Source: a virus
Taxonomy: Duplodnaviria; Heunggongvirae; Uroviricota; Caudoviricetes
Strand: one strand, 5' to 3'
Length of the DNA stretch: 35,193 bases
IMG/VR virus record: IMGVR_UViG_2737471821_000012
Coordinates: 1 to 35,193 of that record
In this document: one piece after another, positions 1,079 to 31,131 of the stretch
Numbering within the stretch: position 1 is the stretch's first letter
How the letters are laid out: each line of letters begins with the position of its first letter
Notes under the pieces: model-generated
What the model saw: the letters and a program-made list of their open reading frames with translations, nothing else
Database searches by the model: none
What the model was told of the DNA's origin: nothing
Program-made: the position numbers and the translations under genes

Positions 1079-1981
1079 TCAGTAGTTATGTACTGAAGGA
1101 GGTAATTCTTTATTCTTAAGTCTCATCCATGCGGAAAGATTCGTTGGTCCGTCTGGCTCATTAATATCAACATCTCGTGTGTGGTTTATTAAAACGTCTC
1201 TCGCCATCCCGATAACATACGAAAACTCATGACCGTAGTCGTAGCATCTGCCGGAATAGTTAGATTGAATTTGTTTTAATGCCGGATACAGTTCGCGGAA
1301 TAATGCCTGTGAGCGGTTGGCATAATCCCATAACCATACAAGGCTGTTTGCTTCTTTTGCAGAAAGCTCGTTGGTTTTCCTCTCTTGTTTACCGATGAAC
1401 TCACCTTCAAGCACTACCCTGTGGATGTACTCTACAGCTTGCGGTATCTGAGATGCATCAAGCTCTTCAATACTTTCCACATTGAAACGCTGATGAATCA
1501 TTGCATAAGCTTCTGGGTACATTAGATGCTTTTTGCTGACTAGCATATTTACAGCATCACGAAGTGGAGTCCTGTCATCAACAGATGTTTTCTTACGTGC
1601 ATTTTCTGCCTTTCCCTTTGTCCAGTAGTCATGCAGCACAGTAAAGCATTCCTCCTGGTACTGAATCAGTTTATCACGGATGTCAGCACGAACTTTCTCA
1701 GGGTTGATGCTGAACAGCCATCCATTTAACTTCTTCAAAGGAAGGCAGAGTAGCTTACGAAGCTTCCCATCAGCGGCAACCATGTTCATATGAACACAGT
1801 TGAATTTGCTAATCTGCTTCATGAGTTTTGTTTGCTGCGTTGACCAGCTCATTCCAAGGTTTTGAACGATTGGCTTCATCGCAACATATGCAACTCCGGC
1901 AGCCATAGCGGTGATAATTTGCTGACCGTTGAATGGTACGTAAGAGGTGTTCACTGCTTCTAAAATTGCTATACTATTCAT
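1079..1981 (-). CDS. ant: Antirepressor Ant (P22 immI type)
   Basis: ORF 1079..2047; likely true start is the internal ATG at 1981 ([21 protein letters not shown]...) preceded by GGAG, giving 300 aa; sits immediately downstream of arc as in P22 immI. Confidence 0.8.
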
Positions 1982-2049
1982 GTTGGTTTTTCTCCACGGA
2001 TTTACTGACAACCGAAGCCCTGACTGTTCCCGCAGTTGGGGCTTCAACT

Positions 2050-2211
2050 TTACGCGCCAATGCGCCCTTCCTTCTTAAAGCTTTCCATTACTCTCTGATA
2101 AATCTCAGAGTTAACAGACCGACCATTCTCTTCCGCCACCTTGCGGACCAAATCCAATACTTCTTTAGGCCACCGCAAATTGAACTGCGGCATTTTTCTT
2201 GCACCTTGCAT
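2050..2211 (-). CDS. arc: Arc repressor (ribbon-helix-helix), 53 aa
   Basis: Hand translation of the minus strand gives [53 protein letters not shown], nearly identical to P22 Arc as I recall it; below the 60-aa cutoff of the ORF track. Confidence 0.85.
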
Positions 2212-2304
2212 ATTCAACTCCACTTCATTAAATGGTATTACCGTACTACTATTGAAAGCGTACTACTACCGTTCTACCATGTCAATAAATAAAAGGAGAA
2301 TGAC
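2212..2304. promoter_or_regulatory. Divergent arc/ant and mnt promoter-operator region
   Basis: 93-bp gap between divergent arc and mnt; contains two near-identical copies of GTACTACTA(T/C) at 2243-2252 and 2261-2270. Operator assignment is inferred from position only. Confidence 0.4.
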
Positions 2305-2547
2305 GTGGCTAGAAATGATCCGCAATTCAACGTAAGAATGCCAGATGAGATAAAACAGCAACTTACGCATATTGCTGCAACAAATCGCCGCTCGATAAAT
2401 GCAGAGATTATTTCAGCTATCGAACTGTGGATAAAAATTCATAAAGAGCAGCTAATACCTTCAAGTAGTCGAATCCTGACAAAGTCAGAGCAAGAAGCGC
2501 TTGATGTAGCTATCGATGTGTTAAAACGTGTGAGAGATGAGGGATAA
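2305..2547 (+). CDS. mnt: Mnt repressor (ribbon-helix-helix)
   Basis: GTG start at 2305 with AAGGAG 7 nt upstream; N-terminus MARNDPQFNVRMPDEIKQQLTHIAATNRRSINAEI resembles P22 Mnt; divergent from arc. Confidence 0.8.
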   Translation: MARNDPQFNVRMPDEIKQQLTHIAATNRRSINAEIISAIELWIKIHKEQLIPSSSRILTKSEQEALDVAIDVLKRVRDEG

Positions 2548-2549
2548 CC

Positions 2550-2795
2550 ATGGAGCAACAACAAGGGTCGCCATTATCATTGATAATTATGGTGATTTTT
2601 TTCGTTTTCATCTTTTTTATACCTGCTTTAAAAATATCCAAGAAAGCTGGTTTTGACTGGAAGATGGCGGTATGTTTAACAATCCCTGGATTCAACGTGG
2701 TTGCGTGGCTAGCACTTGCGTTCATGGATTGGCCAATTCATAAGTATCTACCAAAAGACATGAATGGGATCATGAGCAAAACTAAGGAGAGTTAA
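2550..2795 (+). CDS. Small membrane protein (two predicted TM helices), unknown function
   Basis: 81-aa ORF starting 3 nt after the mnt stop; two hydrophobic stretches (LSLIIMVIFFVFIFFIPAL and VVAWLALAFMDW); locally AT-rich. Confidence 0.6.
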   Translation: MEQQQGSPLSLIIMVIFFVFIFFIPALKISKKAGFDWKMAVCLTIPGFNVVAWLALAFMDWPIHKYLPKDMNGIMSKTKES

Positions 2796-2799
2796 CCAT

Positions 2800-3285
2800 A
2801 TGAAAAAATCACTGTTAATTATCCCGCTTCTGCTGGCTGGATGCGCAAAAGTAAGTGACTACCAAGCAAGTTGCGAACAACGCTATCAAAAGCTTAGCGA
2901 TATGGCTAATTGCCTTGATGCCAGCGTGAAGAACGACTCACGCATGGCATCAGCACCAACACCTAAGCTGTATGTCCTTGCTGCGAAGATGCTCGGACAA
3001 GGTGTCGATGAAGGAAAGATAAGTGACGCGCAGGCAAGACTTGAGCTTCAGAATCTTTATGTTCAATTACAAAGCCAAGAACAAGCCCAACAAATAGCGC
3101 AAAGCCAAGCATTCCAGCAGGCTTTATTGAATTATCAGGCTGTAAACACAATGCAAGCGATCGAGCAAAAAGCGAGGCAGCCTGTTATAACTCAACCTTA
3201 CCCAACGCGTGTTGACACCTATACAAACTGCAATTCAGGATTTGGAAATACCGTCACATGCAACAGTAGCAGCAACATTAGATAA
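2800..3285 (+). CDS. Predicted lipoprotein with Gln-rich helical region, unknown function
   Basis: 161 aa; N-terminus MKKSLLIIPLLLAGC has a lipobox (LAGC), with Ala after the lipidated Cys; Q-rich stretch QLQSQEQAQQIAQSQAFQQALL; four further Cys; tightly spaced after the 81-aa ORF. Confidence 0.65.
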   Translation: MKKSLLIIPLLLAGCAKVSDYQASCEQRYQKLSDMANCLDASVKNDSRMASAPTPKLYVLAAKMLGQGVDEGKISDAQARLELQNLYVQLQSQEQAQQIAQSQAFQQALLNYQAVNTMQAIEQKARQPVITQPYPTRVDTYTNCNSGFGNTVTCNSSSNIR

Positions 3286-3287
3286 AG

Positions 3288-5402
3288 CTATTCATATTCA
3301 TTCATACCGCTTAACGAGGCGACAATACCAGCTCTCGACAAGCGATTGAATTCATCGCTACCAATAGCATCGCGTATTGCTTTTACGGCGGCCTTATTTG
3401 CCATAAATCTGCGTTCCGCCGCCGCTAATGCTTCTTTGCTTCCGCCTGCTCTTACTGCTTTGGTGGCTTCCTGAACAGCTTTCTCTATCGCATATCGACC
3501 ACTACGTGTGGTGGCAATTTTAGATACAGCGCCTTTTAACCCAGCGCCAACTAAAGCACCCGCGGCAGCGCCTGCAATGCCCCCTCCAGCGCCACCAACA
3601 ATGGCACCTGATGTTGAGTTGGCAATTGCATTTAACACCGTTGATGTGACGTTGGATAAACCAGCATCCAGATCGCGTAGTACATTGGCAGTTCTCCCTG
3701 TTCTTTCAATATACTGCTGAGGTTTCACTGCCGCTCTTGCAAGAGTGCCATATGCATCAGCAATTCTTCCAAGTTCTGAGGAATATCTGCTAATGGCTTT
3801 TACATTTTGTGGGGTAAGTATCCCTGCGATATGGTTAATTCCTGCTGCATCAGATTTGCCACCACGTACACCATGCGAGATAGCATCCTGCAACATTGAT
3901 GATATAGCAGGAACACGCTCTGATTCTGGCAGCGCGCGGATCATAGAATGGAATCCAGCAGGACCATTAAGACCTTTAGCTGACGATGCTTGAAGAGATT
4001 TTACTCCATTCGTAATCAGTGCATCTGTTGCCAAATCACGCCCAAAAACAGACTCTGCACTCTCTTGTGCGGATAGCCTCGCTTTAGACAGATCATTAGC
4101 TTTTTGCCAGTCATCAAAAAATCCGCCGTTTTCCGCCATTGTGCGCATATCATCAGTAATTGCCCGACGTATTTCCCCTGCTCTCCTTGCCGCATTTGCC
4201 TCTCCACTACGCTTATATTTTTGCTCCGCATCAGCAAATTTCGCTCTCCATGCTTTCATGCCATCAAATGTTACTCCACCTTGATTGTTTGCCTGAACAA
4301 ACTGTTTCATTTCAGGAGTAAGCGGTATGCCAGCAGATCGCTCTGCCTGAATAACGGCATTACCATTTAGCATTCTTGCTTTTTGATTTGGCATTGTTGA
4401 CCGCACGTCATCCCATGCCGCGCGCTCAGCATCCTTCATCTGATCAAGATTTTGAAGAATCCTTTGTTTTATAGCCGCACTTTTTTCTGATGCCGTTCCA
4501 GATGCGGCCCCAAATTCATCAAGGTTTCGACTTAACTTTGATGATATTTCGTTAAATGCTGCCTGATGGGCATCCTGAACAATCCCTGGTGTTGATGCCA
4601 ATGCGCCTTCGGCTTGTGCAATTCCACGACTTCCAGATCGCATTCCTGGTGTTAATGCGTTTATATCAATTCCAGCAGACTCAGCCGCTTTTGCTACATC
4701 TTCGGACACATTAGCGGCCTGACTGGCAATTGACTGACGCCCAGCACCTGACTTTGCCATCTTGGAAACATCATTAGCAGAATTCAGTGCTGCACCACCA
4801 AGAGCCTGTGAAACCCTTGGCGCAATAACGCGCCCGACACCTGAAAGAACGCCTTGAGCACCAATATTGATACCACCGTTAATGGCAGCATTTTGTGCAA
4901 AATCACCCTCCTGATTTGCAGCATCAGCAAGAGAACCGGCAATCATGTTTCCTGCGGAACCGATGTCTCCTGCGAGCTTTGCTGGCGCTCCAGCAGCTTT
5001 TGCTGCTGTGCCAATTGGCAGGAGATACCCACCAATTGTTTCACCGGCTTGCGCATAAGGGTCTGTCGGTCGATCGACTGGACGATAGACATCATCCAAA
5101 ACCTTGGGGCCACCAAGCCCCTGGCTGATTGCATTAATCAGACTTGCGCCACCCTGCAATACGTCAAATGGTATGTTTACCAGACCACGGCCAGCCTGTT
5201 CTGCAATTTGCCCTGCGCTTTGACCACCAGTGAGCCAGTCAGTGGCTTTTCCTACCAGAGATTGTTCTTCTGGCTGCGATTGGTTTTGAGTGGATTGATC
5301 ACCAGAAGACAGCATCTGAGCAATGCGACGTGCTCCCTCAGTATCGCCGGCAGCATCAGCATTCCTTAACGCCGTCATCAACTGTTCGCGACTATAGGCC
5401 AT
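3288..5402 (-). CDS. DNA ejection/injection protein, P22 gp16-like
   Basis: 704-aa Gly/Ala-rich protein, last of three consecutive ejection-protein-like ORFs after the tail needle gene; assigned by position and composition. Confidence 0.65.
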
Positions 5403-26463: not shown

Positions 26464-26832
26464 ATGGTTGGAACCGCTATAGCAAGCTTTTTTGGGATGT
26501 TGGCAATCTCGACAATTTACGGCTTAGCGCATGCTTTTATTGCGAAATCTCTATCAGAAAAAATAAGCCAGGCTTGGGCGCATAGATCAGCTCGTTTCAT
26601 GATTCTGGTGATCATAGCAATACAAGGGATATCTGCATTTATCCTCTATGGATCAAGCTTATACCTATTGTATCAAGGCGCGACATTTACGCCTTACACC
26701 AGTGATTACGGAACTCTATACGATGGTAGTGAAGACATCACTGTGGCTTGGATCGTCTTTGGTTTATCTATGGCCGTGTCTGTTGTAGCAGACATCATTA
26801 AGGTAATTCTCGTCTTAACCTTCGCTGACTAA
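26464..26832 (+). CDS. Polytopic membrane protein co-transcribed with cI, unknown function
   Basis: ORF track 26443..26832 (TTG); likely ATG at 26464 with AAGGGG upstream, 17 nt after the cI stop; about three hydrophobic helices. Confidence 0.55.
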   Translation: MVGTAIASFFGMLAISTIYGLAHAFIAKSLSEKISQAWAHRSARFMILVIIAIQGISAFILYGSSLYLLYQGATFTPYTSDYGTLYDGSEDITVAWIVFGLSMAVSVVADIIKVILVLTFAD

Positions 26833-26961
26833 CCTATAATCCCGGCAGCAATAGCTATCGGGATCCACTTCACATATCCCGCATAAAAAGCACTGAACAA
26901 GCAGACACCGAAAAAATAAATATCCTTTGTATTCATTTGCTTATCATTATTTCATCAAAAA

Positions 26962-27005
26962 TAAATACCTTGGGTATTTACACAATAAAATACCTACAGT
27001 ATTCT
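26962..27005. promoter_or_regulatory. Left operator region (OL)
   Basis: Palindrome TAAATACC-TTG-GGTATTTA (26962-26980) and related site AAAATACCTACAGTATTCT (26987-27005), sharing the AATACC half-site with OR. Confidence 0.55.
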
Positions 27006-27050
27006 TTAGCCATCAGCAGGACGCTGGTAGCCAAACGGAACAGATTGGCA

Positions 27051-27092
27051 GGCTCTTTAACATTGATGGGATTGTCCCGCCGAAATGCGGGA
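27051..27092 (+). promoter_or_regulatory. nutL (boxA plus boxB)
   Basis: boxA GGCTCTTTAACA (27051-27062) then boxB hairpin TCCCGCCGAAATGCGGGA (27075-27092); the boxB RNA is identical to that of nutR. Confidence 0.6.
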
Positions 27093-27199
27093 ACCAAAGA
27101 GTAGTTGGCTTTGGGGTGACGTGAAGTGCAGCTGCACGACGGCAACCGGAAGATAAGCACCCGGCGCGTCACCGCCAAAGTCAATCATCGGAGGTCAAC

Positions 27200-27499
27200 A
27201 TGACAGTAGTCATTACATATCTGGCTGACGATAACGCCAGAAATCGCCGCAGAGCACGCAGACAGGCTCAACGTGAACAGGCAATGCAAGAGCAGCGACT
27301 GGCGCGAAAAATTGCGCTAAAGCTCTCTGGTTGCGTCAGAGCAGATAAAGCAGCATCACTCGGAAGCCTTCGCTGCAAGAAGGCAGAAGAAGTCGAGCGT
27401 AAACAGAATCGTATTTACTACCGCAAGCCACGCAGTGAAATGGGTGTGACTTGCTCAGGCCGCCAGAAAATGAAATTAGGCAGCAAACCACTTATTTGA
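27200..27499 (+). CDS. N: Antitermination protein N
   Basis: 99 aa; arginine-rich motif NARNRRRARRQAQ near the N-terminus; C-terminus RKQNRIYYRKPRSEMGVTCSGRQKMKLGSKPLI closely resembles lambda N as recalled. Confidence 0.85.
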   Translation: MTVVITYLADDNARNRRRARRQAQREQAMQEQRLARKIALKLSGCVRADKAASLGSLRCKKAEEVERKQNRIYYRKPRSEMGVTCSGRQKMKLGSKPLI

Positions 27500-27507
27500 G
27501 GTGAGAT

Positions 27508-27978
27508 ATGACAAAATCATGGAGCGTACCTTTTCCTGAATCAGAAACTGAACATGATGGAATGCCTGTTTTCTGGAGATTCCAGGCGACAGTTGAAGAA
27601 GATGGGATAAAAATATTCGCACTTCAATATATAGCTTTTCATCAGACAGAGCATTATGCATGGTTGGTTCCTGCGCATTGGATTGTTAATTTTAAACCAG
27701 CACCAAATCAGTGGTTACAGGAATGGAAACAAAGGAGAAATAGATATGCAATTAAGAAAGTAGCAAAAAATGCAGAAAGATCTTTTGCATTCCCAACGAA
27801 GAAACTTGCCATTGAGAGTTTATTGCGCCGGAAGAAATACCATTTAATGAGAATCAAACAAGATTTGGCTGTTGTATCAACTCTTGTTGATGGGATGAAG
27901 AATATTGATACATCAACACCAGATATTGAATATAACTTTGGACACAACCAAGAAACAGAAAATTGGGTATTCTACTAG
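27508..27978 (+). CDS. Hypothetical protein, AT-rich cargo gene immediately downstream of N
   Basis: 156-aa ORF 8 nt after the N stop; visibly AT-rich compared with flanking phage genes; followed by a terminator-like hairpin. Confidence 0.5.
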   Translation: MTKSWSVPFPESETEHDGMPVFWRFQATVEEDGIKIFALQYIAFHQTEHYAWLVPAHWIVNFKPAPNQWLQEWKQRRNRYAIKKVAKNAERSFAFPTKKLAIESLLRRKKYHLMRIKQDLAVVSTLVDGMKNIDTSTPDIEYNFGHNQETENWVFY

Positions 27979-27980
27979 GC

Positions 27981-28007
27981 CGCATAGTCGGCCTTTATTT
28001 TTGGCAT
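27981..28007 (+). terminator. Rho-independent terminator-like hairpin
   Basis: GGCCG-CATAGT-CGGCC followed by TTTATTTTTGG. Confidence 0.5.
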
Positions 28008-28024
28008 AAACAACAGAGGCTAAC

Positions 28025-28321
28025 ATGGAATTTAAAGGTACTGAAGGTAAGTGGGAAATAATGATGGATGGCGATGAGATTAAAATCATCCAGGCAGACT
28101 CACTTGAAAATGGCGCAGGCTGGCGTTCGTATATTGCAATCTGTGAGGAAGTTCAATGTATTGAAGATGCCAATCTAATAGCGGCAGCACCTGACCTTCT
28201 CGAAGCACTTCAGTTATTACTTAAGCAATCCAAAAATAGAACAACGACAACATATCCAGAATGGTATGGAGCTGTTAATAAAGGTCTTGCAGCAATCAGC
28301 AAGGCTCTGGGAGGTGAATGA
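28025..28321 (+). CDS. Hypothetical protein
   Basis: 98-aa ORF; its stop overlaps the next ORF start in an ATGA motif. Confidence 0.5.
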   Translation: MEFKGTEGKWEIMMDGDEIKIIQADSLENGAGWRSYIAICEEVQCIEDANLIAAAPDLLEALQLLLKQSKNRTTTTYPEWYGAVNKGLAAISKALGGE

Positions 28322-28530
28322 TGTGCGAGTTTTATGAAGCAGATATCAAACGCCCAGAAATGGCAAGTGATGCGACATTACGTGATTACTTCGCTGCTAA
28401 GGCTATGGCAGCAATAGTGCGCAGATGGGACGGACATTCCTTTGGCGGTGGACAGAATTCACCACAGTACAAAGAATTAGCAGATGATGCCTACTTTATT
28501 GCTGATGCCATGCTCAAAGCTCGCGAATAA
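28318..28530 (+). CDS. Hypothetical protein
   Basis: 70-aa ORF translationally coupled to the upstream 98-aa ORF (ATGA overlap at 28318-28321). Confidence 0.5.
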
Positions 28531-28626
28531 GCACTGTGTATTCATTCCAACGAGTGAATACACGGAGCAATGTCGCTCGTAACTAAACAGGAGCCGACTT
28601 GTTCTGATTATTGGAAATCTTCTTTG

Positions 28627-28872
28627 CCCTCCATCACCGCCCCCGGTATCCCGCTCATGCTGGCGAACCCAGACACGCAGAGTCTCCGGCGTACAGCCAA
28701 TCTTTGGAGCAATGGAACAAATTGTCGCCCATTGTGAGTCATATTCGCTCTGACTTTCCAGAACCATACGGACTGCCCGTTGACGGACTTCGGGGGAAAA
28801 ACGAGTATTTTTAGTCATCCTGTTTACCTCTTTCTCAGGAAGTTTAGTCTCCAGGATTCCCGGGGCGGTTCA
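28627..28872 (-). mobile_element. Truncated IS3-family element (IS629/IS1203-like): left terminal repeat plus the first ~64 codons of orfA
   Basis: Minus strand reads TGAACCGCCCCGGGAATCCTGGAGACTAAACTTCCTGAGAAAGAGGTAAACAGG ATG ACT AAA AAT ACT...; ORF 28477..28818 begins [23 protein letters not shown]...[14 protein letters not shown] as in IS3-family OrfA (recalled), then diverges into unrelated sequence. Confidence 0.75.
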
Positions 28873-28907
28873 TCCAGTGTGAGGGCAATTTTTTTGACGG
28901 AGGATAT

Positions 28908-29876
28908 ATGAGTGAAGTAACAGATTTAGTTGTTATTGAAAAAGCAAATGCAATGACTGTATTTCAGTCTGCCGACCAGATTGAAGAAATCCTTCAAAAG
29001 GTTGAACATGAAGTTATGTCCTTTGTGCCTGATATCACAACGGCAAAGGGCAGAAAGGAGATCGCTTCTCTGGCGTATAAAGTTGCGCAGACGAAAACAT
29101 ATCTCGATGGTCTTGGCAAAGACCTTGTTGCTGAACTGAAGGAAATTCCAAAGCTAATTGATGCCAACCGCAAGACAGTGCGTGATCGCCTTGATGAGCT
29201 GAAAGCCAAGGCACGCCAGCCTCTTACTGATTATGAGGAAGAACAGGCACGGATTAAAGCCGAAGAAGAAGCTAAGGCAGCAGCTGAAGCTCTCGCAAAG
29301 CAAATTGAGTCTGACCATGAAATAGCGATTTTGATGGATCGCGAATTTGACCGCCAAAGAGAAGAGGCAAGACTCAAAGCGGAGCAGGAAAAGCGAGAGC
29401 ATGAAGAACGCTTAAAAAGAGAAGCTGAAGAGAAAGCCAGAGCAGAAGCCGAAGCAAAGGCAAAAGCCCAAATTGAAGCAGCAGCAAGGCGAGAAGCAGA
29501 AGCTAAGGCCGCAGCGGAACGTGCAGAGCGTGAACGCATTGAAGCCGAGCAACGAGCACAGCGCGAAGCAAAAGAGGCAGCAGAACAAGCTGAAAGAGAA
29601 AAGCAGGCGGCAATTGAAGCAGAACGCCGAAAAGCACAGGAGGAGGCTGAACGAATCCGGCGCGAGGCTGAAGCAAAAGAGCAAGCCAGAATAGCAGAAG
29701 AAAAAAGAATCAAGGACGAAGAAGAGCACAGAGCAAAGGATAAAGATCACCGGAAAGAAGTAAATAACAAAATACTTGCTGACCTTATCAAGGTTGGCGC
29801 ATCAGAAGATGTTGCTAAAAATATCATAACAGCCATCGTAAAAGGCGAAGTATTCGCAACAAAAATAACCTACTAA
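28908..29876 (+). CDS. Highly charged coiled-coil protein (Glu/Ala/Lys/Arg-rich repeats), unknown function
   Basis: 322 aa; ordinary N-terminal ~100 aa, then ~170 aa of low-complexity EAKA/REAE repeats, then a short C-terminal domain; the repeats create several spurious overlapping ORFs on both strands. Confidence 0.65.
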   Translation: MSEVTDLVVIEKANAMTVFQSADQIEEILQKVEHEVMSFVPDITTAKGRKEIASLAYKVAQTKTYLDGLGKDLVAELKEIPKLIDANRKTVRDRLDELKAKARQPLTDYEEEQARIKAEEEAKAAAEALAKQIESDHEIAILMDREFDRQREEARLKAEQEKREHEERLKREAEEKARAEAEAKAKAQIEAAARREAEAKAAAERAERERIEAEQRAQREAKEAAEQAEREKQAAIEAERRKAQEEAERIRREAEAKEQARIAEEKRIKDEEEHRAKDKDHRKEVNNKILADLIKVGASEDVAKNIITAIVKGEVFATKITY

Positions 29877-29900
29877 TAAAACCAACATAAGGAACCACCC

Positions 29901-30032
29901 ATGATTTACGCAATCGCGGGAGGCGCTCGCATGGGTGCCTTCCAACTAAATGAATCTTTACTTGAACGAATCACCCGTAAATTACGTGACGGATGGAAAA
30001 GAGTTGAGGTCTTATTATGCGCAATGAAATAG
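29901..30032 (+). CDS. cIII: CIII (protector of CII from FtsH)
   Basis: Hand-translated 43-aa ORF MIYAIAGGARMGAFQLNESLLERITRKLRDGWKRVEVLLCAMK; central ESLLERITRKLRDGWKR matches lambda CIII as recalled; AAGGAA upstream. Confidence 0.8.
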   Translation: MIYAIAGGARMGAFQLNESLLERITRKLRDGWKRVEVLLCAMK

Positions 30033-30169
30033 CCATCAATCACCAGATGCTTCGTGCTGCACAGAACAAAGCAGTAATAGCCAGATTTATTGGTGATTCA
30101 AAAATGTGGATTGAAGCAAATAAAGCGATGAAATCAGCTATCAACCTTCCGTGGTATCGCAGGAAATGA
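30017..30169 (+). CDS. Kil-like small protein
   Basis: Hand-translated 50-aa ORF overlapping the cIII 3' end; position after cIII and an FIGD-KM motif that I tentatively recall from lambda Kil. Confidence 0.4.
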   Translation: MRNEIAINHQMLRAAQNKAVIARFIGDSKMWIEANKAMKSAINLPWYRRK

Positions 30170-30244
30170 GTTTTACAGATAACTGTTCAGACGAAGAATT
30201 CATTCGTCAGATGAAAGATTTAATCGGTAACGAAGGAGATATTC

Positions 30245-30415
30245 ATGTCACTTGCAAGCACAGTGAAGGAGAGCAAGTTACAGAGACGCATGTACACGCA
30301 GAAAGCTCTCTGGTATCGCCATAATGGTGACCGCGAAGGAATGCGGGTATGCCTTAATTTGTCCCGAGTCGAAGTATTAAATCAGCGTTATTTCCTTGGG
30401 CCGTGTCCATTCTGA
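30245..30415 (+). CDS. Small hypothetical protein immediately upstream of the annealing-protein gene (Arf-like position)
   Basis: 56-aa hand-translated ORF with AAGGAG 8 nt upstream; an alternative overlapping 52-aa ORF (30166..30324) is coupled to the kil-like gene by ATGA, and only one of the two is likely real. Confidence 0.35.
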   Translation: MSLASTVKESKLQRRMYTQKALWYRHNGDREGMRVCLNLSRVEVLNQRYFLGPCPF

Positions 30416-30423
30416 GGTGAATT

Positions 30424-31131
30424 ATGGATTTGAATAAATTCGATGAGCCATTCAGCCCTGAAGATATCGAATGGCGAATACAGCAAAGCGGTAAAACACG
30501 CGATGGCAAAGTGTGGGCTATGGTGCTGGCTTATGTCACGAACCGGGCAATCATGAAACGCCTGGACGATGTTTGTGGCAAAGCAGGATGGCGCAATGAA
30601 TACCGCGATATTCCCAACAACGGCGGCGTTGAATGCGGCATATCAATAAAGATTGATTCCGAATGGGTAACCAAATGGGATGCTGCTGAAAACACGCAGG
30701 TAGAAGCCGTCAAAGGTGGTCGTTCAGGTGCAATGAAGCGCGCTGCCGTTCAGTGGGGAATCGGTCGGTATCTGTATAACCTTGAGGAAGGTTTCGCACA
30801 AACATCTCTCGACAAAAAGCAGGGATGGCACAGGGCAAAACTCAAGGATGGAACAGGATTTTACTGGCTCCCTCCATCGCTGCCAGGCTGGGCAATCCCA
30901 GCATCAGATAACAAACCATCACCAGAAAATACCAACCAGAAATCTCCATCGGTTGACTGCGAGCAAATCCTGAAAGACTTCAGCGATTATGCGTCAACAG
31001 AAACTGACAAGAAAAAACTCATCGAGCGTTATCAGCGTGACTGGCAATTAATGGCTGGCAACGAGGAAGCGCAGGCTAAATGCGTTCAGGTAATGAACAT
31101 CAGAGTTAACGAACTAAAACAGGCGGCATAA
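30424..31131 (+). CDS. Single-strand annealing recombinase (Rad52-like N-terminal domain, Erf-type C-terminus)
   Basis: 235 aa; C-terminal ~55 aa (...YASTETDKKKLIERYQRDWQLMAGNEEAQAKCVQVMNIRVNELKQAA) matches the P22 Erf C-terminus as recalled; the N-terminal domain differs and carries a GIGRYLY-type motif. Confidence 0.75.
   Translation: MDLNKFDEPFSPEDIEWRIQQSGKTRDGKVWAMVLAYVTNRAIMKRLDDVCGKAGWRNEYRDIPNNGGVECGISIKIDSEWVTKWDAAENTQVEAVKGGRSGAMKRAAVQWGIGRYLYNLEEGFAQTSLDKKQGWHRAKLKDGTGFYWLPPSLPGWAIPASDNKPSPENTNQKSPSVDCEQILKDFSDYASTETDKKKLIERYQRDWQLMAGNEEAQAKCVQVMNIRVNELKQAA

Follow-up and report, generated by a model that had tools for sequence, protein, structure and literature searches.

Does a fragment of an insertion sequence (IS) in the early-left region of a tailed phage genome mark the place where phage genes were lost, or is it a truncated IS copy in an otherwise intact operon? 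The question arises at positions 28,531 to 28,907 of IMG/VR record IMGVR_UViG_2737471821_000012, which was analyzed as one stretch of 35,193 nucleotides (hereinafter, the window). A reading of the sequence without database searches (the sequence-only reading) had described here, on the minus strand, a left end of the IS629/IS1203 type followed by the first ~64 codons of orfA, and had interpreted the truncated element as a rearrangement junction at which phage genes between the N-proximal block and cIII might have been deleted. The window is the genome of a P22-like phage (Sf6/HK620/CUS-3 type). The plus strand as given corresponds to the leftward early operon, with the order repressor, N-like protein (27200-27499), three small open reading frames (ORFs), a 322-aa coiled-coil gene, cIII, kil, and erf, annotated here following the related phage CurroJimenez_Bas106.

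Identity and extent of the IS fragment

Alignment to IS3-family copies confirmed that the fragment is IS-derived. Positions 28626-28872 of the window matched positions 1-247 of 1310-bp IS copies with 100% identity and without gaps, in at least 34 full-length copies from IMG/VR and likewise in many plasmid copies. Full-length copies of the matching variant are 99.5% identical to copies annotated by their submitters as “IS3 family IS629,” and IS1203 and IS3411 are regarded as isoforms of IS629 (PMC3271280), so that the name proposed in the sequence-only reading is sound. The copy interrupting int in the phage 21 int-region record (AF017626.1) is 100% identical to the full-length variant that matches the fragment.

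The purely IS-derived part spans 239 bp on the minus strand (28634..28872; 240 bp if the target duplication is 3 bp) and comprises the left inverted repeat, the orfA leader, and orfA codons 1-64. The left inverted repeat lies at about 28847-28872 and is the same as that of IS629 (TGAACCGCCCCGGG...); the IS end, ...GGGGCGGTTCA, terminates at 28872 with the sequence ...GGTTCA. The orfA gene starts with an ATG at 28818, from which 64 of the 108 codons (MTKNTRF...) extend down to 28627, and the encoded part of OrfA contains a helix-turn-helix domain (Pfam HTH_Tnp_1, residues 1-59, E = 1.4e-7, above the curated cut-off). The remainder of the element, positions 241-1310, is missing, in agreement with the earlier proposal that a deletion ended inside the IS. 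A BLAST comparison of the full element with the whole 35-kb window detected no IS-matching DNA outside 28626-28872 and no orfB-matching DNA. The right inverted repeat is absent, the sole TGAACCGCCCC end in the window being the left inverted repeat itself. An Rfam search of 26500-30500 yielded nothing relevant and, specifically, no match to the ALIL frameshift pseudoknot, for which a full IS copy scores 121.5 bits. The element is thus truncated rather than complete with a programmed frameshift, as the sequence-only reading had held.

Compared with the 1310-bp IS629 (isoforms IS1203 and IS3411), the fragment shares the nucleotide sequence, the OrfA N-terminus with its helix-turn-helix, and the 3-4-bp target duplication of the IS629 group of the IS3 family, but keeps only 18% of the length and has neither paired 5'-TG terminal repeats nor the frameshift signal with the orfB DDE transposase. 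Lacking the right inverted repeat, the pseudoknot, and the DDE transposase, the fragment would be unable to transpose alone. It is a feature of an already known kind, namely a shortened copy of a familiar IS at a place where that IS is often found: in O157, most IS629 copies (62%) sit in prophages (PMC3271280), like the fragment in the window.

Past OrfA residue 64, the reading frame runs into unrelated sequence, as had been noted, and continues for 49 codons antisense through phage DNA to a stop, producing a chimeric ORF of 113 aa (28477..28818, minus strand). The chimeric protein had no full-length match among 5.8 billion protein clusters. This ORF is probably a by-product of the truncation rather than a gene, and the chimeric OrfA helix-turn-helix protein is probably without function. 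A breakpoint hot spot at orfA codon 64 was considered and rejected: among the best 120 OrfA-like clusters in the protein database, the points of divergence ranged from codon 61 to codon 108 and did not cluster at codon 64.

Thus, what the sequence-only reading had observed was confirmed, with coordinates almost exactly right, and its interpretation was partly supported, as detailed below.

The flanking phage DNA in IS-free relatives

The window and phage Bas106 are colinear over 27480-29999, the sole indel at this site being the extra 245 bp at 28633-28877 of the window, with 100% identity of the flanks up to 28632 and again from 28878. The two flanks are directly joined, as ...TCTTCTTTGCCCTCCAGTGTGAGGGCAATTTTTTTGACGGAGGATATATG, in Bas106, in two Escherichia coli prophages (L002 and L003), and in E. 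coli strain N63, and the exact 34-nt empty site was present in 90 IMG/VR contigs. Because the flanks are contiguous in these IS-free relatives and, in the window, a duplication of TCC(A) brackets the fragment (see below), the site does not represent a junction between rearranged parts of the phage genome, and the suspected loss of phage genes between the N-proximal block and cIII was not borne out: the extra 245-bp block is the only indel at the site. On this comparison, no phage gene is missing, and the deletion would lie wholly inside the IS. The appropriate label for the feature is a truncated IS629 copy (pseudogene) in an otherwise intact early-left operon, not a deletion junction; beyond annotation, its importance is small.

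The 322-aa coiled-coil gene downstream of the IS piece in the leftward early operon (28908..29876, plus strand) is intact. Its product is a highly charged, repetitive, EAKA/ERRK-rich coiled coil without a Pfam match, labeled “TolA” or “coiled-coil domain-containing protein” in relatives. In two related prophages, this gene is a pseudogene, with an internal stop in L003 and a frameshift in N63.

IS629-type copies also occur near this site in related prophages. Strain N63 (L089, NZ_CM165881.1) carries a full-length copy (2791-4100) that has the same orientation and lies 25 bp upstream of the insertion point in the window; on its other side, this copy is joined to a tail-fibre gene fragment, so that in N63 this intergenic region does contain a true rearrangement junction. 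L002 and L003 each contain a full-length IS629-like copy (1938-3247 in both), 94.7% identical to the window fragment, located a few hundred bases upstream of the coiled-coil gene and devoid of target duplications, with the neighborhoods int/torI, IS, ral in L002 and cII, IS, truncated sieB in L003. IS629 insertions and rearrangements mediated by IS seem to accumulate in the early-left region of the L002 and L003 prophages.

Target duplication and direct repeat at the junctions

Across the junctions, the window reads GCCCTCCA|TCACCGCC..., followed by the IS interior up to the left inverted repeat, and then ...GGTTCA|TCCAGTGTGAGGGC (junction sequence, CTTCTTTGCCCTCCATCACCGCCCCC). The tetranucleotide TCCA (or the trinucleotide TCC) is found at 28630..28633 and again at 28873..28876, immediately outside the left inverted repeat. 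Given that TCC(A) flanks the IS piece twice but is present once in the empty site, it represents a target-site duplication. IS629 duplicates 3-4 bp of target (PMC3271280), and among the fetched loci, clean duplications were identified for 21 of 45 distinct full-length IS copies (19 of 3 bp and 2 of 4 bp).

The junction block GCCCTCCA (28626..28633) is identical both to the empty site, where it comprises the left arm of a terminator-like hairpin and the target, and to the interior of the IS. The internal sequence of the common IS variant, ...GGTGAGCCCTCC|ATCACCGCC... (also given as ...GAGCCCTCC|ATCACC...), has a T where an initial reference copy had an A, which exposes a perfect repeat between flank and IS: GCCCTCC(A), made up of the phage flank and the duplication, also stands in the IS interior immediately ahead of the breakpoint. 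The length of this direct repeat is 7 bp (GCCCTCC), or 9 bp if counted as GCCCTCCA plus the T of the right inverted repeat; when the adjacent right inverted repeat is included, the homology extends to 18 of 22 positions. In a rebuilt full insertion, GCCCTCC is the only direct repeat of at least 7 bp between the 40-nt flank and the IS, and recombination at this repeat yields the window exactly, deleting 1,070 bp. Positions 28626-28633 are, by this alignment, the putative short direct repeat at which the deletion was joined.

Probable insertion followed by an internal deletion

The simplest history of the locus, and one that we consider quite likely, is the insertion of a full-length element followed by a 1,070-bp deletion between the direct repeats of 7-9 bp. 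Under this scenario, a 1310-bp IS629-type element would have entered the loop of the terminator-like hairpin between the small-ORF block and the 322-aa gene, in the orientation opposite to leftward early transcription, duplicating TCC (or TCCA). The flank with the duplication, GCCCTCC(A), would by chance have equaled a stretch located 1,070 bp inside the IS, and a deletion between the two would have removed IS positions 241-1310, that is, the right inverted repeat, orfB, the frameshift signal, and the 3' part of orfA, leaving 240 bp of the IS and every phage base. Spontaneous replication slippage could have produced the deletion, as could a strand switch during transposition-associated copy-out replication; the data fit both. 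What the fragment is, that its flanks are contiguous, and the presence of the duplication and of the repeat were observed directly; from these observations, we infer the order of events and the route of the deletion.

The full-length intermediate, for which the predicted left junction is CTTCTTTGCCCTCC(A)TGAACCGCCCC, is itself inferred: no full-length IS at the exact site was present in IMG/VR, and neither junction was found as a single-piece match in 5,426 complete E. coli genomes. The junction of the window was likewise absent from the 5,426 complete E. coli genomes, 50,697 phage records, and the species-representative genomes. Candidates were set aside on inspection. In the 22-23 E. coli records in which the junction was covered to at least 80%, the coverage came from two separate pieces joined, except in N63, which has a different insertion. 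Plasmid matches listed under “hypothetical protein” were copies truncated elsewhere beside a group II intron gene, or a complete copy. The IS629-type copies of three plasmids from enterotoxigenic and enteroaggregative E. coli (NZ_CP022914.1, NC_011752.1, and NZ_CP024238.1) are truncated at one position, with 795 bp kept, a few hundred bases from the group II intron reverse-transcriptase gene ltrA.

Deletions of a comparable kind are known. Elements that transpose by the copy-out-paste-in route, including IS629, are lost between microhomologies of 2-6 bp, some of which intrude into the IS; a strand switch during abortive copy-out transposition has been proposed to account for the resulting scars, and IS629 loss is stimulated by the transposase and the IEE PrimPol (bioRxiv 10.1101/2023.06.07.543989; PMC9943667). 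As in the scars left by ISApl1 from Tn6330 and by IS629 excision with transposase and IEE, one end of the deletion in the window is at the boundary between IS and flank, and the joint is a short direct repeat that contains the target duplication. Scar events usually remove almost exactly one IS length, whereas the second repeat in the window is 240 bp inside the IS, so that, unlike in the usual scars, a sizeable piece of the element remains. Furthermore, transposase and IEE promote the excision of IS629, and in the window their involvement would be hypothetical. The site appears to be a clean natural example of an IS mostly erased through a deletion between the flank (with the target duplication) and an internal repeat, and this deletion fits current strand-switch and microhomology models of IS loss.

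Besides the failure to find the full-length intermediate, two observations count against an insertion followed by deletion. The internal stretch that most resembles the right inverted repeat coincides in register with the breakpoint, which simple slippage accounts for only via the extended homology of 18 of 22 positions, and an independent fragment with the same internal boundary exists in plasmid contigs from metagenomes. Both are considered in the next section.

Alternative origins of the fragment

The history originally suspected, in which phage genes between the N-proximal block and cIII were lost through a larger deletion or recombination now marked by the fragment, draws some plausibility from the IS629-type copies at true junctions nearby in the related prophages L002, L003, and N63, but is contradicted by flanks that are contiguous to the base in IS-free relatives, by the target duplication, and by a gene order the same as in Bas106; we regard this history as hardly credible, and the comparison of the flanking sequences refutes it. 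Only slightly less improbable is a repeat-induced misassembly that would make a complete copy look truncated. IS copies commonly break or confuse short-read assemblies, and the junction is unique in every collection searched, but a fragment 100% identical to real copies, with exact flanks and a target duplication, would not be expected from such an error, and the overlap of 7-9 bp is shorter than assembler k-mers.

A more substantial alternative, still an unlikely one in our assessment, is that the fragment was inserted as a short element in its own right and the site never held a full-length copy. The IS629 transposase would have paired the left inverted repeat with an internal look-alike of the other end (ATCACCGCCCCCGG...), and a 240-bp circle copied from a donor elsewhere would have been pasted into the terminator loop with a 3-bp duplication, TCC. 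The look-alike, ACCGCCCCCGGTATCC (28636..28651), is inverted relative to the left inverted repeat at 28854-28869, the two being complementary at 14 of 16 positions (88%), so that the remnant would have imperfect terminal repeats. With 15 of 22 positions matched, it also resembles the right inverted repeat better than any other stretch inside the IS. The inner boundary (NNN-ATCACCGCCCCCGGTATCCCGC; internal IS block, ACCGCCCC) is in register with it, and an element starting at this register gives a duplication of 3 bp. However, look-alikes of 15 of 22 or better arise in 12% of dinucleotide shuffles (p about 0.12), and we therefore rejected the notion that the look-alike is remarkable in itself. 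IS3-family elements have conserved terminal 5'-TG, whereas the pseudo-end in the window begins with AT (or TC). The identity of the phage flank with the IS sequence to the left of the pseudo-end, GCCCTCC, would be left unexplained (chance probability about 6e-5), and because of this identity a deletion in situ is favored over insertion of a MITE. Bacterial MITEs and mini-IS are short elements without transposase coding, with imperfect terminal repeats and a direct duplication, as is the 240-bp piece with its 14 of 16 matched positions in the window; in contrast to them, the inner end has no terminal TG and no family at different sites was found. Specifically, IMG/VR, the species-representative genomes, and the metagenomes did not contain multiple copies with the same ends at unrelated sites and with duplications of their own, and copies with other flanks numbered zero in IMG/VR, with none relevant in the species-representative genomes. 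An initial IUPAC scan for mini-elements had returned 85 loci, all of which were ordinary IS interiors; refined scans gave no match in IMG/VR, one unrelated match in the genome collection, and one true second case in the metagenomes. The breakpoints of OrfA chimeras among the protein clusters, which show no preference for codon 64, also speak against a short mobile element.

The second case consists of a 240-bp IS629 left-end fragment in the contigs L092 (QZLQ01000400.1, 8338-8580) and L094 (QZLW01001818.1, 4046-4289), with the boundary …GAGTCC|ATCACC…. In both contigs, the left inverted repeat adjoins the interior of cvaA, the colicin V export gene of ColV plasmids, and the other flank is AT-rich DNA without a match in complete E. 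coli genomes. This independent fragment shares its boundary with the window, as expected for a short mobile element, but it is the lone additional case, it lacks a target duplication, its site within cvaA is rearranged, and it, too, shares TCC outside the pseudo-end. Within the same low probability, we include a hybrid scheme in which the strand switch follows from a stall of copy-out replication at transposase bound to the internal site. Given that the window and L092/L094 share the boundary and that the breakpoint is in register with the look-alike, it is conceivable, although we would not expect it, that the look-alike at IS629 position about 240 is a functional internal transposase-binding site or an occasional alternative end. 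If so, the internal site could stall copy-out and provoke a microhomology switch, or be used as the end; in both cases, 240-bp “solo left-end” fragments would arise repeatedly.

A terminator-like hairpin split by the IS piece

Insertion of a full-length copy followed by its internal deletion, the reading that we prefer, would have left the phage with a divided RNA element. In the empty site, the flanks meet within a terminator-like hairpin (TTGCCCTC-CAGTGT-GAGGGCAA-T7) that shortly precedes the 322-aa coiled-coil gene and has a GC-rich stem of 8 bp, a loop of 6 nt, and a T7 tract; the predicted fold shows the stem. By sequence, the empty site thus has the GC-rich stem-loop directly before a T tract that defines an intrinsic terminator, and a consensus terminator scan detected the intact hairpin in Bas106 (L001 3325-3346). 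The IS piece occupies the loop of this hairpin. An inverted-repeat search located the left arm, TTGCCCTC, at 28624..28631 and the right arm, GAGGGCAA, with T7 at 28881..28895 (arm 28881-28888), both on the plus strand, the latter 13 nt upstream of the ATG of the 322-aa gene. With the arms now 249 nt apart, the terminator scan of the window detected no terminator at the IS site. The minimum-free-energy fold of 28600-28905 still pairs the arms, yet is no better than folds of shuffled sequences (z = -1.0).

Intrinsic terminators in lambdoid pL operons are read through by N-type antitermination. The empty-site hairpin, a predicted terminator, resembles these terminators and shares its strand with the genes for the N-like protein, cIII, kil, and erf, whereas the arms in the window are separated by the IS piece. 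Splitting the terminator could slightly alter N-independent read-through into the 322-aa gene, cIII, kil, and the recombination genes.

In Bas106, an annotated 32-aa ORF (L001 3271-3369) covers this hairpin and, through an ATGA overlap, reaches into the start of the 322-aa gene. Its counterpart in the window (28570-28737) is disrupted and reads into the IS as a 55-aa ORF. Where the relatives differ by A or G, the stem stays paired in both forms (U-A versus U-G), suggesting that the RNA structure rather than the 32-aa peptide is conserved.

The upstream hairpin

A second inverted repeat had been described at 28536-28563 as lying just beyond the junction. This hairpin is real and longer than reported: its arms, 28531-28547 and 28552-28568, form a 14-bp hairpin (28531..28568, plus strand) directly after the stop codon of a 70-aa ORF, with a predicted RNA fold of -21.7 kcal/mol (z = -6.8; none of 200 shuffles as good). 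Its association with the junction did not hold, because the hairpin is 100% identical in IS-free relatives and present in 79 of the 90 IS-free loci; by this comparison, it is a pre-existing phage feature unrelated to the IS event. At this position, at least two of the other IS-free loci (IMG/VR L102-L181) instead carry another inverted repeat, ATAGCAGA...TCTGCTAT. The hairpin may be a processing signal, a termination signal, or a module boundary. Homology among the mosaic relatives L002 and L003 begins exactly at its 5' edge.
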